Of a stretch of 64,000 nt of DNA, positions 17,138 to 55,215 are shown piece after piece. The notes beneath the pieces were generated by a model. It ran no database searches, was not told the origin of the DNA, and saw only the letters and a program-made list of their open reading frames with translations. The stretch spans positions 736,001 to 800,000 of the forward strand of contig OZ245817.1 in the NCBI GenBank assembly GCA_965228475.1, read 5' to 3'. How positions within the stretch are numbered: position 1 is the stretch's first letter; every line of letters begins with the position of its first letter. Origin of the DNA: Myxococcota bacterium (lineage in GTDB: Bacteria > Myxococcota_A > UBA9160 > JAFDDA01). A program made the translations under genes and the position numbers.

Positions 17138-18735
17138 CAGGGGGAACCCTCGGCGCGCGGGTCGTTCTCGCGAAGCCCGCGCAGCGCGCGCGTCGGGTCG
17201 TCGCGCGTGCGTTCGAGGAAACGCGCGACCTCTTCGGGGGTGAGTTCGGGCGGCGGGGGAAGGCGGGCACGCTCGGGTTCGGGGGTCTCGTCGCTCGAAT
17301 CGTCGGGCGGCTCGGGGGACGAAGCGTCGGCTTCGGAAGGGCTCGGCTGCGGCGGAGGCGGCGGCGGATTCGCTTCGAGCGCCTGGAGCGTCCACTCGAG
17401 ATTGAAGCGCGCCTCGAGATCCTCGGGCGCGAGCGCCACGGCCTCGAAGAAGGCGTCGCGCGCGGCCTCGAAGCGGCCCGCTTCCAGCGCGGCCACCCCG
17501 GCGCCGTAGTACGCTCGCGCGCTTCGCTCGGCTCGGGTACCGAGCAGGGCCGCGGCGCGGAAGGCGCGTTCGGCTTCTAGCCAATGCCCGGCGTCCGCCA
17601 GGGCCAACCCCCGCTCGAAGGCGCGCTGGTCGCGGGGGGCCGAGCCCGGAGCTGCGGCGACGAGACCCAGCGCGACGAGGATCCCGGCGCGCCCCGCGCT
17701 CGGGATGCGCAGCGTCGGCCAGGAAAACGTTCCGAACGATCCGGCGCGGCCGGGCCGGCCCGCGCCGCCCGGGCGGCGGAGCGCATCGAAGAGCAGGAGC
17801 GCCAGGGCGAGGGCCGCCACGGGCACCGTTCGGACGGCGGGGACGCGCCGCTCGATGAAGCCGGTCTCGGCCGCGAGGGCGGCGTCGCGGCGGACGGCCG
17901 CGAGCAGGGCGGCTTCGTCGACGGCGCCGAAGCGGTCCGTCGCGAGCAGCTCGCCGCCGGTGGCCGAGGCGAGGGCGAAGAGCCGCTCGGTGTCGAGCCG
18001 CGTTCGGACGGGGCGGCCGCGCCGGTCGCGCAGTTCGAGCCCCTGGTTCGGGATGGCGGCGCCCTCTTCGCTTCCGAAGCCGACCGCGACGACCCGCACA
18101 CCGTCGCGCAGGAGTTCGGCCCGTCCGAGGTCGGGCGTGGCGTCGGCGTCTTCGCCGTCCGAGAGGACGACGAGCACGCGGGGCCGCTCACTGCCGGGGT
18201 CGAAGGCTTCGAGGGCGCGGGCGACGCCGGCGCCGAGGCGCGAGGCGCCGGGCCGCACGAGGGTCGTGTCGAGGGCGGGAAGCAATCCGGCGAGGGCGGC
18301 GTGGTCGTGACTGAGCGGCGCGACCAGCACGCCGCGCGCCGCGAAGGCGGCCAGTGCGGCGCGGTCGCCCGGCGCGAGGCCGGCGAGCAGTCCCTCGGCC
18401 GCGCGGCGCGCGCGGTCGAGCCGGCTCGGCGGGACGTCGCGCGCGTCCATGCTGCGCGAGACGTCGAGCAACACGACGACGTCGAGGCCCGAGGCCGAGA
18501 CCCGTTCGACGCGCGTACCCGAGCGCGGCCCGAGGGCGGCGATCGCCACCGCGGCGAGCGCGGCAAGCAGGAGGAGTTCTCTCGCTCCGCCGGCGCCTCC
18601 GCGGGCCGAACTCCCGAACAGGAGCCGACGCCTCCGGGCGGCGCGCACGCGGGCCATCGCGACGGCGGCGGCGAGACCGAGCCACGCGAGCGCGAGCGCC
18701 GGGATCCACTCGGGACGGACGAAGAAGGCGGTCAC
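17134..18735 (-). CDS. VWA domain plus TPR protein (BatB/BatC-like fusion)
   Basis: MIDAS LDVSRSM, PSRLDRA, LSDGED, a TM, a TPR (EARFNLE) and a Pro-rich tail ending in W. Confidence 0.85.
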   Translation of the reverse strand: MTAFFVRPEWIPALALAWLGLAAAVAMARVRAARRRRLLFGSSARGGAGGARELLLLAALAAVAIAALGPRSGTRVERVSASGLDVVVLLDVSRSMDARDVPPSRLDRARRAAEGLLAGLAPGDRAALAAFAARGVLVAPLSHDHAALAGLLPALDTTLVRPGASRLGAGVARALEAFDPGSERPRVLVVLSDGEDADATPDLGRAELLRDGVRVVAVGFGSEEGAAIPNQGLELRDRRGRPVRTRLDTERLFALASATGGELLATDRFGAVDEAALLAAVRRDAALAAETGFIERRVPAVRTVPVAALALALLLFDALRRPGGAGRPGRAGSFGTFSWPTLRIPSAGRAGILVALGLVAAAPGSAPRDQRAFERGLALADAGHWLEAERAFRAAALLGTRAERSARAYYGAGVAALEAGRFEAARDAFFEAVALAPEDLEARFNLEWTLQALEANPPPPPPQPSPSEADASSPEPPDDSSDETPEPERARLPPPPELTPEEVARFLERTRDDPTRALRGLRENDPRAEGSPW

Positions 18736-18781
18736 GGGAGGCACTCCCAAGCGCTCACGAGAGGCACTCCCCCGGGCTCAC
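18732..18781 (-). repeat. Two 23-nt-period units, each a coupled 8-aa mini-ORF
   Basis: GTGA at 18781/18758/18735 on the minus strand. ORFs MSPGECLS (18755-18781) and MSAWECLP (18732-18758) bridge the two VWA genes. Confidence 0.75.
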
Positions 18782-19803
18782 GAGATCACCCGCCGCAGGA
18801 CGGAGAACCCGAGCAGCTCGAGCGCGATGAAGCATCCGGCCGCGGCCAGGAAGGGTTCCGGGCGGGGCCGCTCGAGGCGCTCCCCCCGCGCCGGCCGCTC
18901 GACGCGTTCGAGGGCGTCGATGGCCTCGTAGACGGCGCCGAGATCCGCGCCGCTGCGCGCCCGGAAGAACCGGCCCCCGGTGTGCTGCGCGATCGCCTCG
19001 AGCGTTTCCGCGTCGAGGTCGTGGCGGCCGAAGCGCAGCCCGCGCGCGGCCGCACCCTCGGCGGCGCCCATCGCCACGCGGCCCTCCCCGCCGATGCCGA
19101 CGGTGTGGACCCGCACCTGGCTCGCGCGCGCGAGCTCCATCGCCACGTCGACGGGGATCTCGCCCGTGGTGTTGCGGCCATCGGTCAAGAGCACGACGAC
19201 ACGGCCTTCGGGGGACGCGCCGCCGCGTGCGGTGACGCGCCGGACGGCGAGCGCGAGCGCCTCGCCGAGGGCCGTCTCGTTCCCGGCGACGCCCGGCCGC
19301 ACGCGTTCGAGGGCGGCCGCGAGCAGGGCGCCGTCCTGGGTCAGGGGACACTGCGTGAACGCGTCGTCGCCGAAGACCACGAGCCCGACCCGGTCGCCCG
19401 CTTCGGCGCGGGTCCGGGCGAAGCGCGCGACGGTGCGCTGGGCGAGGGCCAGGCGGGTTCCCGGTTCGCCATCGATCTGCGCGTCGAGGGCCTGCATGCT
19501 CCCGGACGCGTCCACGACGAGCAGGAGGTCGAGCCCGAGCTCCGGGGGTGGCGCCGAGGGGCGCAGGCTCGTCGGACCGGCGAAGACGAGGGCCAGGGCC
19601 ACGAGCGCGCCGGCGCGGAGGAAGGCGCGAACGAACCGCTCGAGGTCGCGGGTGCGAAGACCAGCGGTGCGCGCCTCGGCGAAGGCCGGCCAGCTCGCGC
19701 CGCGCGCGCGCCGCCGGAGCAGGGCGGCCGCCGCGAGGAGGCCGGCCCCGCACAGCAGGAACCACTCGGGATGCAGGAAGGTGAAGTCCGCGGGCACGGT
19801 CAC
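18778..19803 (-). CDS. VWA domain protein (BatA-like)
   Basis: F.HPEWF N-terminus, DASGSM, DRVGLVVF, TALGEAL, LTDGRNT, and a C-terminal TM. Confidence 0.87.
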   Translation of the reverse strand: MTVPADFTFLHPEWFLLCGAGLLAAAALLRRRARGASWPAFAEARTAGLRTRDLERFVRAFLRAGALVALALVFAGPTSLRPSAPPPELGLDLLLVVDASGSMQALDAQIDGEPGTRLALAQRTVARFARTRAEAGDRVGLVVFGDDAFTQCPLTQDGALLAAALERVRPGVAGNETALGEALALAVRRVTARGGASPEGRVVVLLTDGRNTTGEIPVDVAMELARASQVRVHTVGIGGEGRVAMGAAEGAAARGLRFGRHDLDAETLEAIAQHTGGRFFRARSGADLGAVYEAIDALERVERPARGERLERPRPEPFLAAAGCFIALELLGFSVLRRVIS

Positions 19804-20756
19804 GTCTCCCGCGGCCGCACCGAGCGGGCGACGAAGGCGAGGGCGTCCTGGAACCAGGCGCGCAGGGCTTCCCGCGAAGCCGGCTCGTCGACGCCGCCGG
19901 GGAAGCGCAGGGCGTCGAGCCGCCGCAGCAGCGCGACGAACTCGGGCCAGTGCGAGAGCAGGCGGCCCGGCGGCCGCCGCGCGGCGATCTCTTCGGTCGT
20001 GAGGCTTTCGAGAGGGCGTGCGCTGCGGATGGCGGCGTAGCGCCGGAGGGCCAGCGCCGCCGCGTCGGCGGCTTCACGCGGATCCGCCTCGGCTTCGGCC
20101 AGCGCCCGGCGCAGATCCCGCTCGGCTCGCTCCCACGCGGGCGTCGTATCTTCCGCTTCGCCGGCACCCGCGGCCCGGGCCCGGCGTCTCCGCAGGAAGC
20201 GCCAGCCCGCCAGCGCGATCAGGGTGGCGAGCGAGCCGGCGGCGGCCGAGCCCCAGGCGGGGAGCCGGCCGCGCGGCGCGGATTCCGGCGCGTCGCGGAG
20301 TCCGAAGGGCACGAGCTGGTCCGGCAGTGCGTCGGAAGCCGAGACGACGACGAAGGGACGCGCCTCGAGGCGGAGCGTGCTCGTTTCGCCCCCGGGCCCT
20401 TCGACGGCGATCTCGCGCGCCGGCCATTCGTATTCTCCCGGGACGTCGCGCACGCGGGCACGGACCTGCGTCGTGTGGGTCCAGCGCCCGCCGTCGCGTT
20501 GCACCGGTCGGCGCTCGGCGTCGAGCAGCCAGAGCGGCGGGATCTCCTTCGGGAACTCGATCGGCGGAAGGTGGTGATCCGGCGCGGTCACGACGACGAC
20601 GTCGATCTTCACGAGCTCGCCCACGCGCAGGGCCGGCGGCTCGAAGACCACCGCGCCGTGGGTTGCGGACGGAGGCGGCGAGGGCTCGGGCGCTTCGCCG
20701 CAGGAAAGCAGAGCGCATCCAGCGAAGAGCGCGCCGAGCACGGTCCGGGCCCTCAT
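19800..20756 (-). CDS. Bat-operon accessory membrane/lipoprotein
   Basis: ATG 20756 (ATGA overlap), lipobox-like LLSC, Ig-like domain, a TM, then LRRY...TTEE...D..RF typical of this operon position. Confidence 0.7.
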   Translation of the reverse strand: MRARTVLGALFAGCALLSCGEAPEPSPPPSATHGAVVFEPPALRVGELVKIDVVVVTAPDHHLPPIEFPKEIPPLWLLDAERRPVQRDGGRWTHTTQVRARVRDVPGEYEWPAREIAVEGPGGETSTLRLEARPFVVVSASDALPDQLVPFGLRDAPESAPRGRLPAWGSAAAGSLATLIALAGWRFLRRRRARAAGAGEAEDTTPAWERAERDLRRALAEAEADPREAADAAALALRRYAAIRSARPLESLTTEEIAARRPPGRLLSHWPEFVALLRRLDALRFPGGVDEPASREALRAWFQDALAFVARSVRPRET

Positions 20757-29321: not shown

Positions 29322-29438
29322 CTCTCCCGGCCGCTCGGCCGTGCCCCGGGGGCCTCGTTCGTCGACCTCTGGGGCGGGTTGCGCTATCCCCTCCGCGTCC
29401 TCAATCGCGCCATCCCGTGCGAGGAGCCCCCTTCGGCG

Positions 29439-30308
29439 ATGACCACCCTGGCCCAGAACGTGCGCTCGTACGTGGAGCTGACGAAGCCCCGCGTGCTGCT
29501 GCTCGTGATCTTCACGGGGTTGCCCGCCATGGCCCTGGCCGGGGGAGAATGGCCGGCGCCGCTGTTCGCGACGACCGTCCTGCTCGGGATCACCCTGGCG
29601 GCGGGCGCCGCCAACGCCCTCAACTGCTACATCGAGCGCGACCGCGACGTGCGCATGGAGCGCACCGCCGACCGGCCGCTGCCTTCGGGGCGCATGAAGG
29701 CGCGCAACGCGCTGATCTTCGGCGTCGTCCTCTCGGTCGTCGCGACGGGGGTCCTCTGGGCATCGGGCGGGGCGGTGGCTGCCGCTCTCGGCCTGGCGAC
29801 CATCCTCTTCTACGTGTTCGTCTACACGGTCTGGCTGAAGCCCCGGTCGTCCTGGAACGCCGTGATCGGCGGGGCGGCCGGCGCGGCGGCGCCGCTGATC
29901 GCCGATGCGGCTGTGAACGGGAGCGTCGGCCCGGCCGGGCTCCTGCTCTTCGCCATCGTCTTCTTCTGGCAGCCGCCCCACGTCTGGGCCATCGCGCTCT
30001 TCCGCAAGGCGGACTATGCGGCGGCCGGCATCCCGATGCTTCCGAACGAGATCGGCGACCAGCCGACCCGCTGGCGCATGCTTGGGTACTCCCTGGCGCT
30101 GGTGCCGGTGACCCTCGCACCGCTGCCGCTCGGCCTGCTCGGCCCGCTCTACGGTGGGGTGGCCGCGGCCCTCGGGCTGTGGTTCGTCTGGCACAGCGTC
30201 CGCGTGATCCGGGAGCAGACCGACGCCGCCGCGCGCCGCATGTTCGGCGTCTCGCTCGTCTACCTCTTCGCGCTGTTCCTCGCGATGCTGGTCGACTTCG
30301 CCCTCTAG
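29439..30308 (+). CDS. cyoE: Protoheme IX farnesyltransferase (heme O synthase)
   Basis: LTKPR, NCYIERDRD..MERTADRPLPSG, YTVWLK, FFWQPPH.WAIA...DY..AGIPMLP. Confidence 0.94.
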   Translation: MTTLAQNVRSYVELTKPRVLLLVIFTGLPAMALAGGEWPAPLFATTVLLGITLAAGAANALNCYIERDRDVRMERTADRPLPSGRMKARNALIFGVVLSVVATGVLWASGGAVAAALGLATILFYVFVYTVWLKPRSSWNAVIGGAAGAAAPLIADAAVNGSVGPAGLLLFAIVFFWQPPHVWAIALFRKADYAAAGIPMLPNEIGDQPTRWRMLGYSLALVPVTLAPLPLGLLGPLYGGVAAALGLWFVWHSVRVIREQTDAAARRMFGVSLVYLFALFLAMLVDFAL

Positions 30309-30316
30309 CCAGGGCC

Positions 30317-30751
30317 GTGGACCTCTCCTTCCTTCCGGCCGTCAACGCGAGCCTGAACGCCGTGGCGACGCTGCTCCTGCTCTGGGGCCGCTCGCTCGCC
30401 CGCCGTGGGGCGCTCGACACCCACCGCCGCGTCATGATCTCGGCCTTCGGGGTCTCCGCGCTCTTCCTCGTGTTCTACGTGGCGCACAAGATCTGGCGGG
30501 ATTTCGAACACACGCCCTACCACGGCGTCGGCGCGGCCAAGGCCTTCTACCTCGCCCTGCTCGGGACGCACCTGGTCCTCGCGATGCTGGTTCCGGTGCT
30601 CGCGGTCGTCTTGATCCGCCGCGGCCTGCGCGACGACCGCGAGGCCCATCGCCGGCTCGCTCGCTGGGCCTGGCCCGTGTGGCTCTACGTGTCGCTCTCG
30701 GGCATCGCGATCTACGGCATGCTCTACCACTGGAACCCGCCGGCCGTCTGA
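30317..30751 (+). CDS. DUF420 (CtaM-like) oxidase-associated membrane protein
   Basis: LPAVNASLN...HRRVM..AF..SALFLVFY...H..LA...HRRLARWAWPVWLYVS.SG. Confidence 0.85.
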   Translation: MDLSFLPAVNASLNAVATLLLLWGRSLARRGALDTHRRVMISAFGVSALFLVFYVAHKIWRDFEHTPYHGVGAAKAFYLALLGTHLVLAMLVPVLAVVLIRRGLRDDREAHRRLARWAWPVWLYVSLSGIAIYGMLYHWNPPAV

Positions 30752-30836
30752 AAAACAGGACCGTTTTCGGTCCCAATCCGGAGCGTTCCGTAGGGGCGCG
30801 CAGCGCCCGGAAACGTCGTGATTTCGCGGCTCTTGG

Positions 30837-30866
30837 TTGACGCGGCGCGACCGGATCAGCTACCAA
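30837..30866 (+). promoter_or_regulatory. Candidate sigma-70 promoter for the oxidase operon
   Basis: TTGACG-N18-TACCAA, bracketed by a short IR (TCTTGGT...ACCAAGA). Confidence 0.35.
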
Positions 30867-31006
30867 GAGCCCCGCCGGAAAGCCCCCTCTCCTTGGCCTC
30901 CGATGCCCTCTTCCGAGGTGGTGCGCCGGCCAACCAAGACCCGCAGGAGTGCTTCCGACACGAAGCCACCTTCGATGGGATGGACGACCGAACGATGACC
31001 GAATCC

Positions 31007-31684
31007 ATGACCGACCGCGCTGGCGGCACCCGCTTCGTCTTGGCGCTCGCCTGCGGAGTGTTGTTCCTGGCCGCTCCGGTCCGCGCGGACGAGGCGCCGG
31101 CAGGTGCCGAAGCCGAGATGGGCGACGTCGCCCGCGGCGAAGCCCTCTACGACCTCTGTGCCCAGTGCCACGGTGCCGACGGTGCCGGGAACCCGGACAT
31201 CGAGGCGCCGGCCATCGCCGGGCTGCCCGGCTGGTACGTCTCCTCGACGCTGAAGAAGTTCAAGGCCGGCGGCCGCGGGACCCACCCGGACGATTACTCC
31301 GGCATGCGCATGCGCCCCATGTCGATGTCCCTGCGCGGCGAACAGGACATCCCGGACGTGACGGCCTACGTGGCCCAACTCGCGCCGGTCGACCCGGAGC
31401 CCACCCTCGAGGGCGGCGACGCGGCCCGGGGCGCTGCGCTCTACGCGCCCTGCATCGCGTGCCACATGCCCGACGGCGCCGGGAACGCCGCGCTCAGCGC
31501 GCCGCCGCTCATCTACGCGAACGATTGGTACATGTTCTCGCAGCTCAAGAAGTTCAAGGGCGGCGTGCGCGGCACGAACCCCCAGGACGCGATGGGCGCG
31601 CTGATGGTCGGGATGTCCCAGACGCTGGTCGACGACCAGGCGATCAAGGACGTCATCGCTCACATCATGACGCTCTCGAAATAG
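31007..31684 (+). CDS. Diheme cytochrome c (c4-like)
   Basis: Signal peptide, CAQCH and CIACH, with duplicated halves carrying Met ligands (RMRPM, LMVGM). Confidence 0.9.
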   Translation: MTDRAGGTRFVLALACGVLFLAAPVRADEAPAGAEAEMGDVARGEALYDLCAQCHGADGAGNPDIEAPAIAGLPGWYVSSTLKKFKAGGRGTHPDDYSGMRMRPMSMSLRGEQDIPDVTAYVAQLAPVDPEPTLEGGDAARGAALYAPCIACHMPDGAGNAALSAPPLIYANDWYMFSQLKKFKGGVRGTNPQDAMGALMVGMSQTLVDDQAIKDVIAHIMTLSK

Positions 31685-31699
31685 GAGCCCGGCAGCACC

Positions 31700-31804
31700 A
31701 TGGGCAAGGCATATCCCGCAGACGAGTTGGCGAAGCGCATCTTCGTCGTATCCATGTTGGGCGTCGGCCTCTTCATCTCCGTCGTCTTCACCTTCATTCT
31801 CTAG
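31700..31804 (+). CDS. 34-aa single-TM peptide in the oxidase operon
   Basis: MGKAYPADELAKRIFVVSMLGVGLFISVVFTFIL. AGGAG lies upstream, and the ORF fills the gap between the cytochrome c and subunit II. Below the ORF-track cutoff. Confidence 0.7.
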   Translation: MGKAYPADELAKRIFVVSMLGVGLFISVVFTFIL

Positions 31805-31813
31805 GAAGCAAGC

Positions 31814-32506
31814 ATGGTCGAGCGATACATCCTCCAGGCTTCCACCTTCGCCGCCGACATCGACTCGGTGATCAACCTGATCGGTTGGTTGGTCCTGTTC
31901 TGGGGTGGCCTGACGGCGGCGGTCTTCTTCTACCTCCTCTTCCGTTTCCGGAAGAAGGACGGCGTCGGCGCCGAGTACATCACCGGCGAAGAGAAGGAGC
32001 AGAAGCGCTTCATCTCCATTCCCCACTACCTGATCATGTTCTGCGACATCTTCATCATCGTCGCGGCCATCCAGGTCTGGGTGGACGTGAAGCAGCGCCT
32101 GCCCGAGGCGCCCCACGCGACGGTCCGGGTGATCGGCCAGCAGTGGGCCTGGAGCTTCGTCCACCCCGGTGCCGACGGTGCCCTCGACACGGCCGACGAC
32201 ATCCGCACGGTCGACGAGCTGCGCGTCGAGGTCGGCAAGCCCTACCTCTTCGAGCTGACTTCCCGGGACGTGCTGCACAACTTCTCGGTCCCGGTGTTCC
32301 GATTGAAGCAGGACGCGATCCCCGGGCGCACGATCACCGGCTGGTTCGAAGCGACCGAGACCGGGACGTACGACATCCAGTGCGCGGAGATCTGCGGCAT
32401 CGGCCACGGCCTGATGCCGGCTCGCATCGTGATCGAATCGGCCGAGGACCACGCCGCCTGGGTCGCGAGTCAATCTTCCACCCAGCTCGCGGCCGTCGCG
32501 AAGTAG
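31814..32506 (+). CDS. coxB: Cytochrome c oxidase subunit II (CuA)
   Basis: Two TMs, QQWAWSF, DVLHNF, KQDAIPG, CAEICGIGHGLM. Confidence 0.92.
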   Translation: MVERYILQASTFAADIDSVINLIGWLVLFWGGLTAAVFFYLLFRFRKKDGVGAEYITGEEKEQKRFISIPHYLIMFCDIFIIVAAIQVWVDVKQRLPEAPHATVRVIGQQWAWSFVHPGADGALDTADDIRTVDELRVEVGKPYLFELTSRDVLHNFSVPVFRLKQDAIPGRTITGWFEATETGTYDIQCAEICGIGHGLMPARIVIESAEDHAAWVASQSSTQLAAVAK

Positions 32507-32525
32507 CTGGGACCACGGAGCCACC

Positions 32526-34244
32526 ATGGCCGAGACCATCGAGCACCCTGCACACGGCGACGCCGGACACGACGCTCATCACCACCACGAGATGAGCTTC
32601 TGGCAGAAGTACGTGTTCTCCACCGACCACAAGATCATCGCCATGCAGTACATGTTCACGGGCATGGCGATGGCCCTGATCGGAGGGTTCTTCTCCTACG
32701 CCTTCCGCATGCAGCTGGCCTTCCCGGGCATGGAAGTCCCGGGCTTCGGCCTGGTCTCGCCGGCGGACTACAACGCGCTGGTGACGAACCACGGCACGAT
32801 CATGATCTTCTGGGTCGCGATGCCCGTGTTGATCGCGGCCTTCGGGAACTACCTGATCCCGCTGATGGTCGGCTGCGACGACATGGTCTTCCCGAAGATC
32901 AACCGCCTCAGCTACCAGATCTTCCTGCTCTCGGCGATCGTGCTGTTGATCTCGCTCGTGGTGCCGAACGGCGGCTTCGGCGGGGCCTGGACGGCCTATC
33001 CGCCACTCTCCGCGAATCCCAACTACAGCCTCACCCCATTGGGCTCGAGCCTGTGGGTCGTGGCGGTCGCGCTCGAGTTCATCGCCTTCCTGCTCGGCGG
33101 CATCAACTTCATCACCACGGCCATGAACTCCCGCGCGCCCGGCATGAAGCTCTACGACGTGCCGATCGTGGTGTGGATGATCGTCGTGGCGAGCATCCTG
33201 TTCATGGCGTCCGTGGGGCCGCTGATCGCCGGCGCGATCATGCTCTTCATGGACCAGAACATCGGGACCCAGTTCTTCAACCCCGCCTACGGCGGCGACC
33301 CGATCCTCTGGCAGCACCTCTTCTGGTTCTTCGGCCACCCGGAGGTCTACGTCGTGCTGCTGCCCGCCATGGGCATCACCGCCGAGGTCATCACGGTCTT
33401 CGCCCGGAAGAAGCTCTTCGCCTACCGCACCGTGCTCTACACCGTGTTCGGGACCGGCGTGCTCTCCTTCACGGTGTGGGCGCACCATCAGTTCATCGCC
33501 GGCATCGATCCGCGCATGGCGAACGTCTTCACCATCACGACGCTGCTGATCTCCATCCCGCTGGCGGAGATGATGTTCGTCTACGTGGCCACGCTCTACG
33601 GCGGCTCGATCACGTTCTCGACGCCGATGCTCTGGGCGCTCGCGTTCCTCTTCGAGTTCCTGATCGGCGGCGTGACGGGCATCTTCCTGGGCGCGAGCGG
33701 TGCGGACATCTTCTTCCACGACACCTACTTCGTACTCGCCCACTTCCACTACACGTTCTTCCCAATCGCGATCATCGGGACGTTCGCGGGCGTCACGTTC
33801 TGGTTCCCGAAGATGTTCGGCAGGATGATGAACGAGGGGCTCGGCAAGCTCCATTTCTGGCTGACGATCATCCCGTTCAACTTCATCTTCATTCCGCTGT
33901 TCGTGCTCGGCGCGGCCGGCCAGCACCGCCGGATCTACAACTTCGAGAACTACCCGGAGCTGGCCCTGCCCTGGATGCAGGACCTCCGGCAGCTCGCGAC
34001 GGTCTCGCTGGTGATCATGCTCGGCGCCCAGCTCATCTTCTTCTACAACTTCTTCATGAGCCTGGCGCGCGGCAAGAAGGCCGGGAAGAACCCGTGGAAG
34101 GCGAACACGCTCGAGTGGACGGCGGATTCGCCGCCGCCCCACGGCAACTGGCCCGAGGGCCTGCCGACGGTCTACCGCGGCCCCTACGAGTACAGCCATC
34201 CGGACCGCCAGGAAGACTACTGGCCGCAGAACGTCCCGAGCTAG
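32526..34244 (+). CDS. coxA: Heme-copper oxidase subunit I, A1 motif
   Basis: TDHK, HGTIMIF, GWTAYPPL-like, WFFGHPEVY, WAHH, HDTYFVLAHFHY, RR. Confidence 0.95.
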   Translation: MAETIEHPAHGDAGHDAHHHHEMSFWQKYVFSTDHKIIAMQYMFTGMAMALIGGFFSYAFRMQLAFPGMEVPGFGLVSPADYNALVTNHGTIMIFWVAMPVLIAAFGNYLIPLMVGCDDMVFPKINRLSYQIFLLSAIVLLISLVVPNGGFGGAWTAYPPLSANPNYSLTPLGSSLWVVAVALEFIAFLLGGINFITTAMNSRAPGMKLYDVPIVVWMIVVASILFMASVGPLIAGAIMLFMDQNIGTQFFNPAYGGDPILWQHLFWFFGHPEVYVVLLPAMGITAEVITVFARKKLFAYRTVLYTVFGTGVLSFTVWAHHQFIAGIDPRMANVFTITTLLISIPLAEMMFVYVATLYGGSITFSTPMLWALAFLFEFLIGGVTGIFLGASGADIFFHDTYFVLAHFHYTFFPIAIIGTFAGVTFWFPKMFGRMMNEGLGKLHFWLTIIPFNFIFIPLFVLGAAGQHRRIYNFENYPELALPWMQDLRQLATVSLVIMLGAQLIFFYNFFMSLARGKKAGKNPWKANTLEWTADSPPPHGNWPEGLPTVYRGPYEYSHPDRQEDYWPQNVPS

Positions 34245-34256
34245 GACGGGGAAGAC

Positions 34257-34829
34257 ATGAGACCGATCGCCAATACCCGCATCGCTTCCGGAGTCCCGAC
34301 CGGCCGCCTCGCCGTCTGGTGGGTGCTCGCGTCGGAGATCGTGATCTTCGGCGGCGTGCTCGCCTCGTACCTGATGCACCGGCTGGGCAACCCGGACTGG
34401 GCCAGCCAGACGGCATACACCAACGAGTGGATCGGCGGCTTCAACACCTTCGTGCTGCTCACCTCGAGCCTCTCGGCGGTGCTCGCGCACTACGCGGCCG
34501 AGCACGAGCAGGACGGCAAGAAGGCGGCCCGGTACCTCTGGTACACGATCGGAGGCGGCGCGGTCTTCCTCTGCGTCAAGTCCTACGAGTGGTACGTCGA
34601 GATCAGCCACGGGTTCACGATCCAGTCCCACCCGTTCTGGTCGTTCTACTACACGGCGGCGGGCATCCACGCGTCGCACGTCATCGCCGGCATGATCCTC
34701 ATGGCCTTCGTCGCCAAGGACGCCGCCAAGGGCCAGGACCTCCACCGCGTCGAGCTGGTGGGCATCTACTGGCACTTCGTCGACATCGTCTGGATCTTCC
34801 TCTTCCCGCTCCTCTACATCGCGAAGTAG
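34257..34829 (+). CDS. coxC: Cytochrome c oxidase subunit III (short form), copy 1
   Basis: LASEIVIF, NTFVLLTSS, EW, GIHASHV, YWHFVDIVWIFLFP. Confidence 0.88.
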   Translation: MRPIANTRIASGVPTGRLAVWWVLASEIVIFGGVLASYLMHRLGNPDWASQTAYTNEWIGGFNTFVLLTSSLSAVLAHYAAEHEQDGKKAARYLWYTIGGGAVFLCVKSYEWYVEISHGFTIQSHPFWSFYYTAAGIHASHVIAGMILMAFVAKDAAKGQDLHRVELVGIYWHFVDIVWIFLFPLLYIAK

Positions 34830-34848
34830 AGCAAGGAGCCGAATCGAT

Positions 34849-35226
34849 ATGGCCGACCACGGCAGTCAGCACTACATCAAGATCTACTATTGGTTGCTCG
34901 CGCTCCTCGTCGTCAGCATCCTCGGGCCCCTGCTCGGGATCCAGTGGCTCACGCTCGTGACGGCCTTCGGGATCGCGTTCGTGAAGGCCTGGCTGGTCAT
35001 CAAGCACTTCATGCACCTGACCGTGCAGCCGGCCTTCGTCGGCTACCTGCTCTCCAGCTGTCTCGTCTTCATGCTGCTCTTCTTCGCCGGAACCGCTCCC
35101 GACGTCATGAAGAAGGACGGGGACAACTGGGAGAAGGAGCACGTGGTCGTCGTCGGAACCGGCGGCCACCACGACGATCACGGCGAAGGTCACGGAGACG
35201 ATCACGGCGGAGACGCCGCCCACTAG
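34849..35226 (+). CDS. Cytochrome c oxidase subunit IV family, His-rich tail
   Basis: Three TMs with KAWLVIKHFMHL. The C-terminus reads HHDDHGEGHGDDHG. Confidence 0.82.
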   Translation: MADHGSQHYIKIYYWLLALLVVSILGPLLGIQWLTLVTAFGIAFVKAWLVIKHFMHLTVQPAFVGYLLSSCLVFMLLFFAGTAPDVMKKDGDNWEKEHVVVVGTGGHHDDHGEGHGDDHGGDAAH

Positions 35227-35241
35227 CGCCCCGGGGACGCC

Positions 35242-35826
35242 ATGTCCGCACCCTCCCATCTCGAGCTGGTCGACGCCTCGCGCTCTCGCGCGCCGGTGGA
35301 CAGCAACGTCGTCGGGATGCTCCTCTTCCTGATGGTCGAGGCGATGATGTTCGCCGGCCTGATCAGCGCCTTCATGATCGTGCGCTCCAACGCCATCGAG
35401 TGGCCGCCGCCCGGGCAGCCGCGGCTTCCGGTCGAGCGCACCCTGCTGAACACGGCGGCACTCCTGCTCTCCGGCGTCGTCCTGTTCTACGCCGGCCGGG
35501 TGTTCCTGCGCGATCGCGCTGCTGCGCTCCTGCCCATGGGTCTCGCCATGGGCCTGGGCGCCTTCTTCGTCGGCTTCCAGGGCTGGGAGTGGATCCAGCT
35601 CCTGCGCGAAGGCCTGACCCTGACCTCGAGCCAGCATGGCAGCTTCTTCTATCTGGTCGTCGGGATGCACGCGGCCCACGCCGTCGCGGCCCTGGCCGGC
35701 CTGGCCTGGGCCTGGCACCGGCTCTCGGGCCTCACGCTGAACCCGGGCCAGTTCAAGGCCGTCGCCATCTTCTGGTACTTCGTCGTGGTGCTGTGGCCGG
35801 TGCTCTACTGGCGGGTCTACCTGTGA
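35242..35826 (+). CDS. Cytochrome c oxidase subunit III (short form), copy 2
   Basis: GMLLFL.VEAMMFAGL, NTAALLLS, QGWEW, GSFFY...GMHAAH, FWYFV..LW. Confidence 0.85.
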   Translation: MSAPSHLELVDASRSRAPVDSNVVGMLLFLMVEAMMFAGLISAFMIVRSNAIEWPPPGQPRLPVERTLLNTAALLLSGVVLFYAGRVFLRDRAAALLPMGLAMGLGAFFVGFQGWEWIQLLREGLTLTSSQHGSFFYLVVGMHAAHAVAALAGLAWAWHRLSGLTLNPGQFKAVAIFWYFVVVLWPVLYWRVYL

Positions 35827-36101
35827 GCGGCGTGAGGGTCGCCCTCGTGTTCGCGCTGCTCGCGGCCTGGCCGCGCGCCGCCGAGGCCTGCTCGGTCTGT
35901 TTCTCGACGACCGACGAGAACCGCGTGGCCTTCATCGTGACGACGATCTTCCTCTCCGCGGCGCCCCTCGCGATCCTCTTCGGGATCGGCTCCTGGCTGC
36001 GCCGCAGGATCCTGGCTTCCGAGCAGGCGCACGATGCCGCGCGGCAGGCCGGAGCCTCCTCCGCCGCCGAGCCCACGGCGCCCGTCGCACGCCGCGCCTG
36101 A
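35823..36101 (+). CDS. Small exported/membrane protein with CxxC
   Basis: GTGA overlap. VRVALVFALLAAWPRAAEA-CSVCF...AFIVTTIFLS..PL TM. Confidence 0.65.
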   Translation: MSGVRVALVFALLAAWPRAAEACSVCFSTTDENRVAFIVTTIFLSAAPLAILFGIGSWLRRRILASEQAHDAARQAGASSAAEPTAPVARRA

Positions 36102-50230: not shown

Positions 50231-52711
50231 ATGCCGAACGTCGCCCGACTCGCCTCCCTCTTCATCCTGCTGTCATGCCTGAACAGTGCACCCGCGGAAG
50301 CCAGCGAACCCTACCGCCGTGACCTGAACGCCCCCGGAGACGAGCTCGTCACCTTCGACCCGGGAACCGGGCTCGAATGGCTCGACCCCTCGGTCACGGC
50401 GTGGCTCTCGTACGAAGACATCGTTGCTGGCGTCGGCGGCTTTGCTGCCGCCGGTTGGCGCCACGCGACGCTCTCCGAACTCTGCAACCTGCAGGCTTCC
50501 AGCGTGCTCTCGGTCCCGTGCGGTGAGGAGTTCACGATCACGGAGTACTCGACTTCGGAGATCGAGAGCTTCTCGTCCTGGTGGACCCTGCTCGGAGCCA
50601 GCGGGCCCTTCGGCTGCTCCCTGCAAACCGACGCCGCCTACGACGGTGGGGGCCCGGCCGAAGCGGGACGCTTTCGGATCAACCTTCCGTTCGGCCTCCC
50701 CAACGTCGCGCCCTGCGAGCTCGGTCCGTCTCCTCCGGACACCGTGACCACCGTCTTCGAGTTCGTCACCGTCGCCCGAAACGAACCGGTGGGCGGTCAC
50801 CTCCTCGTGCGAACCGCCTGCAGCGACGGGCAGGACCAGGACGGTGACGGCCTGGTGGATCTCGCCGATCCCGACTGCGCCGACCCGAACGACGCGTCCG
50901 AATGGAGCCTCGCGGAGGGCGACATTCTCGTGGCCGATCTGCACCTGTACCGCGTGGATCCGGCGAGCGGCGCGACGACGCTGCTCGCGTCCTACGTCGA
51001 GGCGTCCGGGGTCGCGGCGGTCGCCGATGGAACCGTGTACTTCTTCGACGAGTTCCGGAGCCGGATCTACCGCATCGATCCCGACGGCCGCATGCCCGTC
51101 ATCTACGTCGACCCGCCGAACAACTGGGATCAGCTGCTGACGTCGACCGCCGACGGGAGACTCGCCTTCGAGAGTGGTGGCACCCTTCGCCTGCTCGATC
51201 CGATCGCGGGGCCCATCGACGCGCTGGGCAGCACGGGCGGTCGCCCGGAGGGTCTCACCGTCACTCCGTCCGGCACGGTGGTCTGGGGGCACTGGGGCCT
51301 TCGCGAGAAGAACCCGGGCGCGGCCGGCTACGTGGAGCTGGCGGACGTCGAGAGCCTCGACGTCGGGCCGATGGACGTCGCGCCCGACGGAAGTCTCCTC
51401 TTCCTCGCCCGCAATACGGAGGAGCTCTACCGGGTTCCCTTGCCCTTCGGCACCGCCGAAGAGCCCGTTGCCCTGAGCGATGGTCTCGCGCCCGCCGACA
51501 TGGACGTCCTCGCGGTCGAGTCGGATGGGTCGTGGCTCTTGAGCGCCGCCTGGCCCGAGAAGGCGATCCTCCGCTTCCCGGCCGGAGGAGGGTCTCCCGA
51601 GACCCTGTCCAGCGAAGGCCCGATCGTGAACCCGCAGCAGGTCGTCGTCTTCCGTCCCCCGGTCGATGGTCCCCAGTGCGCAAACGGCATCGACGACGAC
51701 CACGACGGCCAGGCCGACGCCGTCGATCCGGACTGCTCCGATGCGTCGGACGACAGCGAGTGGCACCTGGTGGCGGGCGAGCCCCTGGCCATCGCGAACG
51801 GGGTCGTCGCGCGCGTGGATCCGCTCTCCGGCGCGGCGACCGTGCTGACCTCGGCCGGCCAGGTAGGGGGTGTCGGTCTCGGGATCGACGGCGCGCTGTA
51901 CGTGACCGAGGACGGCGGCATCATGCGCCTCGATCCCGCCGACGGCTCGAAGGTCCGCGTTGCCTTCACCGAGGGCGCCCAACCCTTCGCCATCGACGGA
52001 GCCGGGGTGCTCTACCACGGCGGGCCGGACTACAACCCCTCGTTCCTCTACGTCGTCGATACGACTACGGGGAGTTGGAGCGGGTCGTCCTATCCCTTCT
52101 ATGACGAACTCGGCGGCCTGGTCGTCGAGCCTGCTGGAACCCTGGTCGCGGTGGAGGGGCCGAGCCTCGCGCGTATCGATCCCGCGACGTTCAGCGTCAC
52201 GACGCTGTGGTCGTCCTTCTCCCGCCCGATCGGAGGCATCGAACTCGAAGCCAGCGGCGATCTCCTGTTCATCAATCGGTACGTGTTCGGGCCCAACGAG
52301 ATCCGTCGCTTCGATCTGCAGGGCGGAGGGTCATCGACCCTGCTCGAGACGCTTCCGGCCGGGCACGCCGGCGGCATCATCGTCGAGCCGGACGGCTCCT
52401 GGTTGGCTGCGAGCGAAGGGGGTCTGTACCGGTTCGCGAACGGGGTGGGGCCGGCGATTCTGCTGCGCTCGACGGCGCAAGATCTCGAGCTCTTCCAGGT
52501 CGAGCTGCCCAGCGGAGCGACCGGCCCCCCGGCGTGCGCCAACGGTCTCGACGACGACGGCGACGGCCTGGTGGACCTTGGTGACCCCCACTGCGCCGAT
52601 GCGAGCGACGGGACCGAGGGGCCGACGGCCTGCGGTCTCGGGACTGAGATCGCCTTCCTGCTCCCGTTGCTCCGCCGGCTCCGCCGGCGGTGCCGTGCGG
52701 CCCGGGCCTAG
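50231..52711 (+). CDS. Secreted repeat protein with two beta-propeller-like regions, Cys/Asp repeats and a C-terminal sorting-like tail
   Basis: Signal peptide, three C.DG.D.D.DG..D..DP.C motifs, NHL/SMP-30-like blades, and the tail CGLGTEIAFLLPLLRRLRRR. Confidence 0.75.
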   Translation: MPNVARLASLFILLSCLNSAPAEASEPYRRDLNAPGDELVTFDPGTGLEWLDPSVTAWLSYEDIVAGVGGFAAAGWRHATLSELCNLQASSVLSVPCGEEFTITEYSTSEIESFSSWWTLLGASGPFGCSLQTDAAYDGGGPAEAGRFRINLPFGLPNVAPCELGPSPPDTVTTVFEFVTVARNEPVGGHLLVRTACSDGQDQDGDGLVDLADPDCADPNDASEWSLAEGDILVADLHLYRVDPASGATTLLASYVEASGVAAVADGTVYFFDEFRSRIYRIDPDGRMPVIYVDPPNNWDQLLTSTADGRLAFESGGTLRLLDPIAGPIDALGSTGGRPEGLTVTPSGTVVWGHWGLREKNPGAAGYVELADVESLDVGPMDVAPDGSLLFLARNTEELYRVPLPFGTAEEPVALSDGLAPADMDVLAVESDGSWLLSAAWPEKAILRFPAGGGSPETLSSEGPIVNPQQVVVFRPPVDGPQCANGIDDDHDGQADAVDPDCSDASDDSEWHLVAGEPLAIANGVVARVDPLSGAATVLTSAGQVGGVGLGIDGALYVTEDGGIMRLDPADGSKVRVAFTEGAQPFAIDGAGVLYHGGPDYNPSFLYVVDTTTGSWSGSSYPFYDELGGLVVEPAGTLVAVEGPSLARIDPATFSVTTLWSSFSRPIGGIELEASGDLLFINRYVFGPNEIRRFDLQGGGSSTLLETLPAGHAGGIIVEPDGSWLAASEGGLYRFANGVGPAILLRSTAQDLELFQVELPSGATGPPACANGLDDDGDGLVDLGDPHCADASDGTEGPTACGLGTEIAFLLPLLRRLRRRCRAARA

Positions 52712-55215
52712 GGCCGCAGCGGCGTTCCGCCGATGAGCGGGTCGCAGGGCTCGGTGCCTTCGAAGAGCTCGAAGGGCGCGAAGCCGCCCGCCGTGGCGTT
52801 GCCGTCGCACAGGCCGTCGCAGGTGTCGACGATCTCGCCGGTCTCGAACCAGGTCGTGATCTGGCTCGCGGCCGCGCCGGTGCGGAAGCTCCGGCCGTGG
52901 GGGTCGCAGCCGGAGGTGGCGTCCTGGTTGCTGAGCGGCGGCACGAAGGGCAGGTCGTCCGGGTTCTCGAGGTCGTACATGCCGAGGTCGTGCCAGACCG
53001 CCGCGCCCTTGAACTTGCCGGCGTCCGCCGATAGCGGGCCGGGGACGTCGGGGACGCCGAGCCGGCCCGAGACGGCCGAGCCGCTCGGCCCGGCGGCGTC
53101 GTGCAGGTTCGGCAGGCCGAGGGTGCGCGCCATGATGTCGGTCGCGACGTTCGGCACGATGCCGTCGAAGCGCGCGACGGTCATCAGCATGTCCTTGGCC
53201 TTGCCGCTCCCGGGCAGCGGGTCCTCGGTCACGTGGCGCAGGTAGCCGGCCGGCTCGCCGCTGTCCCAGAGCTCTTCGGCGAGCCCGAAGAAGAGGGCCT
53301 GGGCCATGGGGTCCGGGTTCAGCAGGCCGAGCGCGATCGAGATCAGGCCGATGGCCGCCGAGCGCTGGATCATGATGCTGAAGTTGCTGCCCGGGACGTC
53401 CGCGCCCACGCGGCCGAGATCCGGCGAGAGCGCCGCGAGCTGGGTCCCCATGACGCCGCCGAGGCTCACGCCGAAGTAGTCGACGTTCTTCGTCCCGGTC
53501 GGGAAGACGCCTTCACCGTCGGGCGTCTGGAAGGCGGGGTGAGCGTTGAAGCGGCCCTCCTTCATCATGCGGCCGAGCACGAGGGCGTTCGTCATGCCCT
53601 GGCGCAGGCGGTCCGGCAGGGCGCCGAAGTTGTTCGCGTCGAACAGCACGCCCTGGAGGATGAAGCTCGGCTGGAAGAGGTTCGAGAAGTCGAGGTCGAA
53701 GCTCGAGAGCCCGAGCCAGTCCGTCGCCCCGGCGATGCGGATGAAGTCCGGCAAGCCGTAGTCGTTCTGCACGTTGCCGAGTGCGCCGGCGAGCCCGACG
53801 GCCTGGCGCGCGTTCCCGAACAGGCCCGGCCCGTGCTGGATCGGCGCGATCTTCTCTTCCCCGGCGGTGAGGACCTCGCAGGGCAGGTTGATCGAGAAGT
53901 TCGCGTTCATGAGGCCCTGGGCCTCGGGCAGGCCGTCGCCGTCGGCGTCGACGAGGCGGCCGCCGGTGACCGGGTCGAGCAGCGGGTCCGAGTCGAGGAA
54001 GAGTGGCGAGGCGAACTGGCCGCGGAGCTGCCGCCAGTGCCGCGTGCCCGGCACGCTGCAATCGTTCTGGATCGAGAAGTCGCCCGCCAGGTCGTCGCCC
54101 GGGCCCGCGAAGGGGTAGACGTGGAAGGTCGGATCGGTCTCGGCGGCGAGCCAGGCGTAGGCGTGGTCGCGCATGGCGAGCATCTCGCGCGTCAGGCCCT
54201 CGTCGCTCTGAACGACGAAGTCGAAGGCGAGCACGAGCTCGCTGCGCACGACGCCGATCTTCTCGAGCTTGCGCAGCACCCAATCCGTGTGCTCCCGGCG
54301 TGCCTCGACGCCGGCGATGTCGCTCGGGCGTCCGTCGCGCAGGGCCGCGAAGACGGGCTCCGCCGCGATGTCCTCGCCGGCCAGATTCTTGAGCCCGCGC
54401 ATCGCGACCAGGTAGCGGTGCCCGGGGCGCAGACCCTCGGCGGGGCGCAGGAAGAGGACGGCGCGGTCGGGCTGGCCCGCGGCGAGCGCGCGGCCGTCCA
54501 TCTCGATGAAGTGCGGAACGGGAACCATGCCCGAGTCGACGTCGATCAGGAGCGTCGGGCTGTCGGGCTGGAGGGAGGTGTCGTCGAAGGTGCGGGTGTC
54601 CGCGCGCAGGTGCGACGCGCCCGAGAGCACCGGGTCGACGCCGCCCGGGAAGTGCATGAGGACCTGGGCGGCGGGGCTGAAGCCGTCCTGCCCGCCGAAG
54701 GGCGCGCTCTGGAGCGAGGCGCCTGAGAGGATGGGAAGTACGCCTTCCGGGTACGCGACCTCGAAGCCGGTCGGCGTCGCCGCGGGGGTGAGGTAACGGG
54801 AAGAGGGGAAGGGGAGCAGGCAGTCGGCGCCGTTCAGGAGCTCGCAGTCGTCCGGGCGGTCGAGGCCGCGGCGCTCGAACCAGTTCTCGGACTCGAGCGT
54901 GACGAGCATGCCGGCCATGTCGAAGACCGCGCGCGCCGAGAGCGCGAAGCGGCCTTCGCCGAGTCCGGCGAGCTCCCCGCGCGCCACGCCGTCCTCGACG
55001 GTGAAGTCCGCGAGGCCGAGGCTCGGCGCGCCGTCCACGGCGAGCTCGAGCTCCACCAGCTCGCCGATCGGCGGAAGCCGGAGGGCCACGGCGCTCGGGC
55101 CCGAGGCCCCGGTGAGCAGTCCGGGCTTCGGCTCGAGGAAGGGGAGACCGGTTTCGACGGAGCAGGAGCTTCCGAGGAAGAGGATCGAGAGCAGGGTGGC
55201 GGTGCGGCGGAACAC
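52708..55215 (-). CDS. Large lipoprotein alpha/beta hydrolase, paralog A
   Basis: GGAGG before GTG 55215, lipobox-like LGSSC, CLLPFPS, DGFSP, GVSLGG, Asp (FDGIVPN), His (DPHG). Confidence 0.78.
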   Translation of the reverse strand: MFRRTATLLSILFLGSSCSVETGLPFLEPKPGLLTGASGPSAVALRLPPIGELVELELAVDGAPSLGLADFTVEDGVARGELAGLGEGRFALSARAVFDMAGMLVTLESENWFERRGLDRPDDCELLNGADCLLPFPSSRYLTPAATPTGFEVAYPEGVLPILSGASLQSAPFGGQDGFSPAAQVLMHFPGGVDPVLSGASHLRADTRTFDDTSLQPDSPTLLIDVDSGMVPVPHFIEMDGRALAAGQPDRAVLFLRPAEGLRPGHRYLVAMRGLKNLAGEDIAAEPVFAALRDGRPSDIAGVEARREHTDWVLRKLEKIGVVRSELVLAFDFVVQSDEGLTREMLAMRDHAYAWLAAETDPTFHVYPFAGPGDDLAGDFSIQNDCSVPGTRHWRQLRGQFASPLFLDSDPLLDPVTGGRLVDADGDGLPEAQGLMNANFSINLPCEVLTAGEEKIAPIQHGPGLFGNARQAVGLAGALGNVQNDYGLPDFIRIAGATDWLGLSSFDLDFSNLFQPSFILQGVLFDANNFGALPDRLRQGMTNALVLGRMMKEGRFNAHPAFQTPDGEGVFPTGTKNVDYFGVSLGGVMGTQLAALSPDLGRVGADVPGSNFSIMIQRSAAIGLISIALGLLNPDPMAQALFFGLAEELWDSGEPAGYLRHVTEDPLPGSGKAKDMLMTVARFDGIVPNVATDIMARTLGLPNLHDAAGPSGSAVSGRLGVPDVPGPLSADAGKFKGAAVWHDLGMYDLENPDDLPFVPPLSNQDATSGCDPHGRSFRTGAAASQITTWFETGEIVDTCDGLCDGNATAGGFAPFELFEGTEPCDPLIGGTPLRP

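Follow-up and report, generated by a model that had tools for sequence, protein, structure and literature searches.

In the heme-copper oxidases of the A family, which include the mitochondrial enzyme, the Lys of the K channel is treated as essential, and exchanging it for Met nearly abolishes turnover. The laboratory mutant K362M of Rhodobacter sphaeroides is almost inactive, with reduction of the active site blocked. The subtypes A1 and A2 of the family follow the classification of Pereira and Sousa. In the B-family ba3 oxidase of Thermus thermophilus the K-analogue is a Lys-free path of Ser, Thr and Tyr residues in helices VI–VIII, with a Glu from the transmembrane helix of subunit II at its entrance. 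Here we describe an oxidase operon of a Myxococcota bacterium, located in a 64,000-nucleotide stretch of contig OZ245817.1 (the window), whose coxI gene (32526–34244, plus strand, 572 aa) encodes an A-family subunit I with the GHPEVY motif and without the residues of the K pathway. A substitution of the K362M type has been fixed by nature in an enzyme that is the sole high-oxygen oxidase across a bacterial order, and it also occurs in soil and marine metagenome-assembled genomes (MAGs) of other phylum labels.

Lys-free A-family oxidases are already in print for other lineages, and the enzyme described here is a new variant within a known kind of enzyme. They have been reported in acidophilic iron oxidisers, Thioclava and some archaea, in the portions available of two sources (10.1101/2020.03.01.968255; PMC8239418), and the second of these infers seven losses of the K channel among archaeal enzymes (PMC8239418). 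In the available text of the preprint by Degli Esposti, acidophilic iron oxidisers and their relatives have a COX1 with a hydrophobic residue at K354 and a COX2 without E78, and the D channel is supposed to be kept; a separate passage describes rus-like clusters in Gemmatimonadetes with a diheme c4 and a duplicated COX3 (10.1101/2020.03.01.968255). As far as this text goes, those enzymes resemble ours in missing the Lys (K354/K362) and the entrance Glu of COX2 and in keeping the D-channel residues. They are, however, called A2-type and deep-branching, whereas our clade carries the A1 motif and branches from within Lys-bearing 'PSAIK' enzymes. A buried carboxylate in subunit II, the residues E197/F201 and the pair E361–T323, all treated below, are not mentioned in these passages, nor are Lys-free A-family enzymes treated in the portion available of a PNAS paper on new families of nitric oxide reductase (NOR; PMC11214002). 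No description of this clade was found in the full-text literature searched, the supplementary sequence lists of the preprint lying outside that search.

The best solved relatives of the CoxI protein are the aa3 oxidases of R. sphaeroides (E 6e-124) and Paracoccus denitrificans (3e-123). Residues were numbered by a phmmer alignment to the R. sphaeroides (Rs) subunit I chain 1m56_A (E 6.4e-124), in which the query residue plus 13 gives the Rs number used below for CoxI unless stated otherwise. The block of helices VI–VIII aligned without gaps. In helix VIII (33555–33584, plus strand) IPLAEMMFVY lies over VPTGIKIFSW, which gives T359L, G360A, I361E, K362M, S365V and W366Y (query L346, A347, E348, M349, V352 and Y353). 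In helix VI GITAEV lies over GIVSHV, which gives S299A and H300E (query A286 and E287; 33381–33386, plus strand); the codons of both segments were checked. An earlier note on this DNA, made from the letters alone, had read T359L, I361E, K362M, S365V and the missing S299 equivalent in GITAE in the same way. The alignment agrees, and it leaves no Lys or Thr at the equivalent positions of helix VIII. The Glu at Rs-300 was considered as a further new feature and rejected: 21 of 42 'canonical' rows have E at this position and 22 of 55 sister rows have E or D, so the residue is a frequent one among Lys-bearing enzymes and not special here.

The rest of the catalytic core is in place. The earlier note had all metal-ligand His residues and GHPEVY, with its Glu and the position of the cross-link Tyr, as present. 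Alignment and codons confirm this, with equivalents of H102, H284, H333, H334, H419 and H421 and of E286 and Y288. GHPEVY (query residues 270–275) is invariant in the clade and would, judged from its sequence, carry the Tyr cross-link. The note's view of the D channel needs to be qualified, since N121, D132, N139 and N207 are kept but the channel is not canonical. In helix IV the residues E184-F185-I186-A187-F188 (query numbers; 33075–33089, plus strand) give S197E, G198F, S200A and S201F, and so a second buried Glu. As S197, S200 and S201 are included in the D-channel volume of the Rs enzyme in the available text of a molecular dynamics study (PMC10341450), E197 and F201 would lie in the upper D channel.

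The earlier note had allowed for changes unique to this one sequence. Among 8000 scored database relatives the best 120 (79–90% identity) all read P[IL]AE[ML] and have no Lys. The Lys-free clade is tight (71–90% identity), with MAGs labelled Myxococcota, Gemmatimonadota, Verrucomicrobiota and Bdellovibrionota; when representatives are chosen at 50% identity, it collapses to about one full-length representative (75%), followed by one at 63% and then by Lys-bearing sequences at ≤46%. Among species-representative genomes it is found at 71–81% identity in MAGs labelled Myxococcota, Polyangiales, Archangiaceae, Bradymonadia, Gemmatimonadales, Longimicrobiales, Bdellovibrionaceae and Eisenbacteria, and also in a Puniceicoccaceae isolate. 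The oxidase phylogeny that the note had proposed places these sequences in one supported clade: in a FastTree tree of 158 rows, the 51 Lys-free rows of this type form a single group with support 100, in which two Binataceae sequences branch first and P0122 next, leaving a core of 48 rows. This group lies inside a supergroup of 110 rows (support 99) that also takes in Lys-bearing 'PSA[IV]K' enzymes. At least seven changes of Lys state are needed in this tree, so that loss of the Lys has been repeated within the A family.

In an alignment of 170 rows the Lys-free group has 53 rows, and all 53 lack K362, T359 and S299. E197 and F201 occur together in 53 of 53 Lys-free rows and in 0 of 97 Lys-bearing rows, and they are also invariant in the 201 + 24 + 3 rows of the two core subclades and the basal members described below. 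The residues N121, D132, N139, S142, N207 and E286 are invariant in the clade, as are the three CuB His, the cross-link Tyr, the CuA site and the Arg481/482 pair. Further changes fixed in the clade are M335Q beside the CuB ligands, P480H beside the heme-propionate Arg pair, and D131 and R140 at the mouth of the D channel, where D131 is an extra Asp that is invariant in the core clade. The nearest Lys-bearing relatives, the sister 'PSA[IV]K' oxidases of Acidobacteriota, Binatia and Gemmatimonadota (L023–L079), are 41–49% identical and have a similar coxII-coxI-coxIII order, but keep K362, S359, S299, S201 and the entrance Glu of CoxII, and have no acid in the second transmembrane helix (TM2) of CoxII.

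The losses extend to subunit II, whose gene coxII (31814–32506, plus strand, 230 aa) lies upstream of coxI. At the start of TM2 canonical enzymes have the Glu that forms the entrance of the K pathway (E101 in R. sphaeroides, E78 in P. denitrificans), and it is found in 54 of the 56 operons outside the clade. In the 19 core-clade operons the position holds Q (seven), L (five), H (three), E (two), I (one) or V (one), and in the window it is Q63 (32000–32002, plus strand). K-pathway residues are thus lost from both subunits, which leaves three independent elements of the pathway without constraint. Read from sequence, the canonical K pathway is dismantled in both core subunits, and an alternative supply of protons is required, which was one of the two outcomes that the earlier note had drawn from subunit I. 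At the same time, TM2 of CoxII is longer by four residues in the clade and carries two clade-specific residues. All 19 core and all 3 basal operons have the buried D78 (32045–32047, plus strand); H71 (32024–32026, plus strand) is present in all 19 core operons and missing from the basal members.

A predicted complex of CoxI and CoxII scored 0.91 against 0.00 for the best control, with a contact agreement between runs of at least 98% and a predicted local distance difference test (pLDDT) value of at least 87 for the partner. The mark for such scores is reached by 116 of 157 solved complexes and by 2 of 215 mismatched pairs. As CoxI and CoxII are a textbook pair, the pass may stem from likeness to solved oxidases and may show nothing more than that. 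The predicted interface takes in query residues 340–341, 343–344, 347–348, 350–352 and 354–355 of CoxI helix VIII and residues 63–64, 66–67, 70–71, 74–75, 78 and 81–82 of CoxII TM2; the positions of the lost T359 and K362 (query 346 and 349) are outside it. According to this model, E361 (query E348), S356 (query S343), H71 and D78 would be on the faces that meet at the interface between subunits I and II. By helix arithmetic, H71 would be about 6–12 Å above the old entrance Glu, roughly at the depth of S365–K362, and D78 about 16–22 Å above it, at a height between those of T359 and the active site.

New polar residues have also been fixed in subunit I. S356 (33552–33554, plus strand) replaces the Ala of the Rs enzyme and is invariant throughout the Lys-free clade (201/201, 24/24 and 3/3 rows), whereas all 97 Lys-bearing rows have G or A. 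S327 (G327S) is likewise invariant in the 201 + 24 + 3 rows, compared with mostly G or A elsewhere. Most members also carry I361E, I323T and A319T. T319, T323 and S327 (query T306, T310 and S314; 33441–33467, plus strand) are spaced i, i+4, i+8 and form a ladder of hydroxyls on helix VII. In the available text of the molecular dynamics study, the K-channel volume of the Rs enzyme is bounded by P315, G324, G327, A356, I363, S365 and W366 of subunit I and H96, L100 and E101 of subunit II (PMC10341450). By this definition, the new hydroxyls would be on the walls of the old K channel.

A search seeded with the Puniceicoccaceae protein gave a subclade of 24 cluster representatives, 82–92% identical to the seed, in which helix VIII reads V-A-[IV]-[MIV]-L. 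Among the 225 core-clade representatives, E361 goes with T323 in 201 and I or V at 361 goes with L323 in these 24, so that 225 of 225 fit. The only other positions that co-vary with 361 are F198I, T319S, M344A and I359V, and none of these four changes adds a polar group. From this perfect co-variation (query T310 with E348), E361 and T323 behave as a coupled pair, and most simply they would be hydrogen-bonded to each other between helices VIII and VII. The pair is exchangeable for a hydrophobic pair without other adjustment, and both residues are missing in the basal Lys-free members L041, L048 and P0122.

Other Lys-free lineages show a comparable change in subunit II. Among the genome loci, an acidic residue within TM2 is found in 0 of 54 Lys-bearing and 24 of 24 Lys-free CoxII proteins. 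Two of these 24 belong to an acidobacterial Lys-free pair (L033 and L036, Acidobacteriaceae MAGs; coxI at 7001–8764) with PATIVSLLW in helix VIII. Their CoxII proteins have lost the entrance Glu and gained Glu residues in the middle of TM2, one of them in the column of D78 with the same insertion. As their CoxI nests among Lys-bearing acidobacterial enzymes in the 158-row tree, and their CoxII, in a tree made without the TM2 columns, is placed in a starred set of 35 rows with Lys-type sequences and apart from this clade, the TM2 acid was acquired independently there. In the model, the side of helix VIII that touches subunit II is where their new hydroxyls, T360 and S363, are located.

A third Lys-free lineage (P0128 type) was fetched from metagenomes as a test of the idea of a TM2 acid, giving 80 loci (L084–L163). 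Of these, 79 have no Lys and the motif is PS[VI]-x-x-L, mostly PSVIIL or PSVVIL. No coxII was found upstream of coxI in these loci by tblastn. The gene sits downstream, after coxIII and coxIV (order ctaA-ctaB-coxI-coxIII-coxIV-coxII in L084). TM2 is covered in 47 loci: 46 of them retain the entrance Glu, and every one of the 47 has a second acid seven residues beyond that position (E in 45 loci, D in the other two), at the depth of H71 in this clade. Both the position of the acid and the operon order differ from this clade. In the L033/L036 pair and the P0128 type the upper D channel is canonical, and position 197 is not Glu.

Lys is also missing from some further A-family representatives of the 50%-identity library: P0204, P0227 and P0189 have Asp or Glu at Rs-360 and P0218 has Gly. 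Members of the P0189 and P0218 clusters bear archaeal names (Desulfurococcales, Hydrothermarchaeota); the named clusters of these other Lys-free representatives are Hydrothermarchaeota, Desulfurococcales and Kofleriaceae, with no iron oxidisers among them. One more CoxI, from a MAG named 'uncultured proteobacterium' (L024:7001–8668), is nested among the Lys-bearing sisters and has Gln at H284 and H333 and Val at K362; from its sequence it may be a CuB-less homologue of the oxidase.

With regard to enzyme class, the protein belongs to the A family of the heme-copper oxidases, given its six His ligands, its Pfam COX1 match (8e-129) and a fold with TM-scores of 0.84–0.91 to solved A-family enzymes. 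It bears the mark of the O2 reductases, the HPEVY Tyr of helix VI. Of the features of subtype A1, it has E286 and the D-channel residues N121, D132, N139 and N207, though with Ala/Phe for Ser200/201 and Glu at 197; it lacks those of the K channel, with query M349, L346 and A286 and CoxII Q63 in place of K362, T359, S299 and CoxII E101. The CuA ligands H155, C190, E192, C194, H198 and M201 are intact in the window and invariant in the clade, and a gene for a diheme cytochrome c is directly upstream, as expected for a cytochrome c oxidase. At the gene level it is of the aa3 type, with ctaB in the operon and a match to the heme A synthase CtaA away from it (G000:C1:3289750–3290559), and from these genes the bound heme would be heme A. 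The make-up is not that of a NOR, as the cross-link Tyr and the three CuB His are kept and a separate NorB/NorC-like pair is encoded elsewhere (L003).

The genome of the window (5.0 Mb, one contig) has three genes of the COX1 family: this coxI, a cbb3 set (CcoNOP) and a cNOR-like NorB/C with NorQ. The cNOR-like NorB (447 aa), a NorC-like cytochrome and a NorQ-type AAA protein are at G000:C1:1502143–1506348 (L003), and the CcoN/O/P set at 1517042–1521325 (L002) is about 12 kb from NorB/C. The coxI gene of the window is therefore the only A-family oxidase of its genome; cytochrome bd was also looked for there and was not found. Of five relatives whose genomes were examined for other heme-copper oxidases, a complete 2.9-Mb Longimicrobiales chromosome has the clade enzyme as the only one found, and in the Puniceicoccaceae isolate (L019) and a Bdellovibrionaceae MAG it is the only A-type enzyme. 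Within the phylum of the window, 40 of 151 sampled genomes (its own included) have a match of at least 71% identity. In the same order the match is found in 20 of 23 genomes, 15 of which have no second match at E ≤ 1e-100.

Compared with the canonical A1 aa3 enzymes (R. sphaeroides 1M56/2GSM, P. denitrificans 1AR1/1QLE), the enzyme is 38–40% identical and has the same fold (Foldseek TM-scores 0.84–0.91), the six His, GHPEVY, the Asn and Asp residues of the D channel, the Arg pair and a CuA subunit II. It differs in having no K362, T359, S299 or S365 and no conserved CoxII E101, in the exchanges S197E, G198F, S200A, S201F, M335Q and P480H, in the CoxII TM2 that is longer by four residues and carries His71 and Asp78, and in having two CoxIII-like subunits with five transmembrane helices each and a separate gene for a diheme cytochrome c. 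With the K362M mutant of R. sphaeroides (3OM3) it shares the Met at 362. Unlike that mutant, however, the enzyme of the natural clade evolves under strong purifying selection and is the sole A-type oxidase of several genomes, and so must have compensating changes. For a carboxylate of subunit II and helix VII lining such a path, the ba3 K-analogue is a precedent. The ba3 enzyme is otherwise a remote match (E 1e-9 to 1e-11) and has neither a D channel nor E286, both of which are kept in this clade.

The losses, the conserved gains, the co-variation, the recurrence in other Lys-free lineages and the standing as sole A-family oxidase in several genomes are what the comparisons show. In the reading that we favour, the product of coxI is the catalytic subunit of a functional aa3-type cytochrome c oxidase from a large conserved A-family subclade, and the K-type path for proton input would have moved to the interface of subunits I and II; we give this reading as a whole about an even chance. 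Electrons would pass from the diheme cytochrome c to CuA, heme a and then heme a3/CuB. The protons of the reductive phase would reach Tyr288 by a route between helices VIII and VII of CoxI and the lengthened TM2 of CoxII, with the buried Asp78 of CoxII (and His71) as protonatable relays and Ser356 and Ser327 of CoxI near the active-site Tyr at the top of the path. In most members, including this one, the set Glu361–Thr323(–Thr319) would add to it about as deep as the lost Lys had been. The retained D channel has its upper part rebuilt around the second buried Glu (E197, with F198/F201). In its most general form, the K pathway would be modular: once the Lys of helix VIII is lost, a buried carboxylate on TM2 of CoxII can serve as the relay in the middle of the membrane (here Asp78 with His71, aided by Glu361–Thr323), an arrangement that would go back to at least two, and probably three, separate origins, and the clade would be a natural and widespread proton-pumping A1-type oxidase with an interface route for the protons of the reductive phase. 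We offer this form tentatively, as somewhat short of an even chance.

Several points weigh against this interpretation. Conduction of protons by the new residues and their exact geometry are what we infer from the comparisons above, the depths and contacts coming from the interface list and helix arithmetic. The complex model is from a family with many solved structures, so that it shows likeness and not new geometry, and D78 may lie above T359, near the height of Rs 353/354. As E361 and T323 are missing from the I-type and basal members, and H71 also from the latter, a continuous polar path leading up to D78 from the cytoplasm is not evident there. The association of a TM2 acid with loss of the Lys is based on three lineages, of which the P0128 type may share its loss with this clade as far as the CoxI tree goes. 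The invariant second Glu and the bulky Phe in the upper D channel, together with the second Asp at its mouth, would fit equally well if the D channel served alone. No biochemical data on any member of the clade were found in the literature searched.

Supply through the D channel alone is the main rival, and it is not mutually exclusive with an interface path. Here the K route would be abolished and all chemical and pumped protons would come through the retained D channel, with E197 between F198/F201 and the D131 mouth, while the Asp and His of CoxII and E361/T323 would be structural or electrostatic. It would account for E197 and F201 occurring in every Lys-free row and in no Lys-bearing one, for the invariance of N121, D132, N139, S142, N207 and E286 (and of D131 in the core clade), and for a helix VIII that is wholly hydrophobic at 359–366 in the I-type subclade; the available text of the Degli Esposti preprint, too, supposes that the D channel alone is kept in other Lys-free oxidases (10.1101/2020.03.01.968255). 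Yet L033/L036 and the P0128 type, with their ordinary upper D channel, still carry a buried TM2 carboxylate, and the invariant, membrane-buried Asp of CoxII and S356 and S327 are left unexplained. In canonical enzymes, moreover, the D channel cannot stand in for the K channel in the reductive phase, as is known from the K362M phenotype. On balance we find the D channel as sole supply unlikely, though worth serious attention. We consider it improbable that Glu361 is a one-for-one substitute for Lys362 within helix VIII. The earlier note had pointed to this new Glu, which is one residue from the lost Lys and present in 201 of 225 core representatives as well as in the best 120 of 120 relatives, and an acid at 360 is found in the Lys-free sequences P0204, P0227 and P0189. 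However, 24 of the 225 have I or V at 361 with L323 and no compensating polar gain, one of them being the only A-type oxidase of an isolate genome, the basal L041, L048 and P0122 have no E361, and in the model position 361 faces subunit II and not the old channel. As a general and essential substitute for the Lys, Glu361 was rejected on the I/V361–L323 subclade and the basal members.

Still less probable is a changed chemistry or coupling, that is, a NOR, a non-pumping oxidase or an Na+-translocating enzyme. The new buried carboxylates (E197, E361 and D78 of CoxII) and the changes M335Q beside the CuB ligands and P480H beside the Arg pair could be taken in its favour, and the earlier note had raised a different chemistry as one possible outcome. 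It does not sit well with invariant CuB His, cross-link Tyr, E286, CuA and Arg481/482, with a cNOR-like NorB/C and NorQ of the genome's own, or with an enzyme that is the sole A-type oxidase here and in several other genomes, and no sign of an Na+ site was seen in the sequence. Decay, a pseudogene or an assembly error is a negligible prospect, to which only the sub-threshold NCBIfam scores given below would point. The frame of coxI is open, its third-position GC is 0.96, the motif is kept in the best 120 of 120 relatives, and the clade is widespread with a conserved operon. An AlphaFold2 model of CoxI (50-row alignment) has a mean pLDDT of 87.8, a predicted template modelling score (pTM) of 0.89 and TM-scores of 0.83–0.91 to solved A-family subunit I chains. 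What was observed in coxI is real and conserved, and the gene very probably works.

The clade provides a test of what the K pathway is for, whether proton delivery, charge compensation or both, and could show whether a carboxylate of subunit II can replace the Lys. If the favoured reading is true, the route at the interface of subunits I and II is one not described for any studied oxidase. At least one member of the lineage is an isolate, and only a few residues are proposed (D78 and H71 of CoxII; E361, T323, S356, S327 and E197 of CoxI).

The operon is intact, as the earlier note had taken it to be: 16 of the 18 clade loci have the full six-gene order cytochrome c-coxII-coxI-coxIIIa-coxIV-coxIIIb, and the other two end at a contig edge. 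All features of the cluster are on the plus strand. It is headed by ctaB for heme O synthase (29379–30308; Pfam UbiA 1.9e-60; NCBIfam NF003349 with 319 bits against a cut-off of 246), followed by a gene for a DUF420 membrane protein (30305–30751, start codon uncertain; Pfam DUF420 1.5e-35) that adjoins the oxidase operon also in L004, L011 and L045. The gene for the diheme c-type cytochrome (30818–31684; Pfam Cytochrom_C in two stretches, 2.6e-25) is directly 5' of coxII in 17 of 17 clade loci that reach that far (L004–L021; L010 starts within coxI), and its product is the likely electron donor to CuA. Downstream of coxI are the genes for a first CoxIII-like subunit (34257–34829, 190 aa; Pfam COX3 3e-15), a caa3-type subunit IV (34849–35226, 125 aa; TIGR02229 38.2 against a cut-off of 37.25) and a second CoxIII-like subunit (35242–35826, 194 aa; Pfam COX3 5.6e-21), all three syntenic in clade loci. 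In a long-read MAG named 'uncultured delta proteobacterium' (L045:7001–8718) the same operon is present with coxI and coxIIIa in several tblastn pieces in different frames, which look like homopolymer frameshifts of the long-read assembly rather than a pseudogene.

The clade proteins fall below the NCBI equivalog cut-offs, which is relevant for annotation: CoxI scores 579.8 against 670.75 for CtaD_CoxA (TIGR02891) and CoxII 145.4 against 147.7 for CoxB (TIGR02866). Members of the clade are often named 'cbb3-type cytochrome c oxidase subunit I' in NCBI records (P0005, P0006, P0015, P0059, P0073 and others). For an A-family clade this label is a misnomer, consistent with the CtaD score below the cut-off.

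The G+C content is 0.64–0.68 across the oxidase operon (30000–36000 of the window), compared with 0.70–0.77 in the flanks. Together with the 71–81% identity of CoxI across phylum labels, this composition would fit a horizontal spread of the operon, though the composition of membrane proteins could lower the G+C content too. Four large open reading frames (ORFs) of the window, 17584–20040, 50231–52711 (plus strand), 52708–55266 (minus strand) and 55281–58028 (plus strand), gave no Pfam match at E ≤ 1e-5; they encode 818–915 aa and have a gene-like codon G+C. Finally, a small ORF (35817–36101, plus strand) overlaps the end of coxIIIb; its product has a CSVC motif and a single helix predicted to lie in the membrane. 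No Pfam or NCBIfam family matched it, and tblastn matches of 32–47% identity are found in the same place in L004, L005, L006, L008, L010 and L045.

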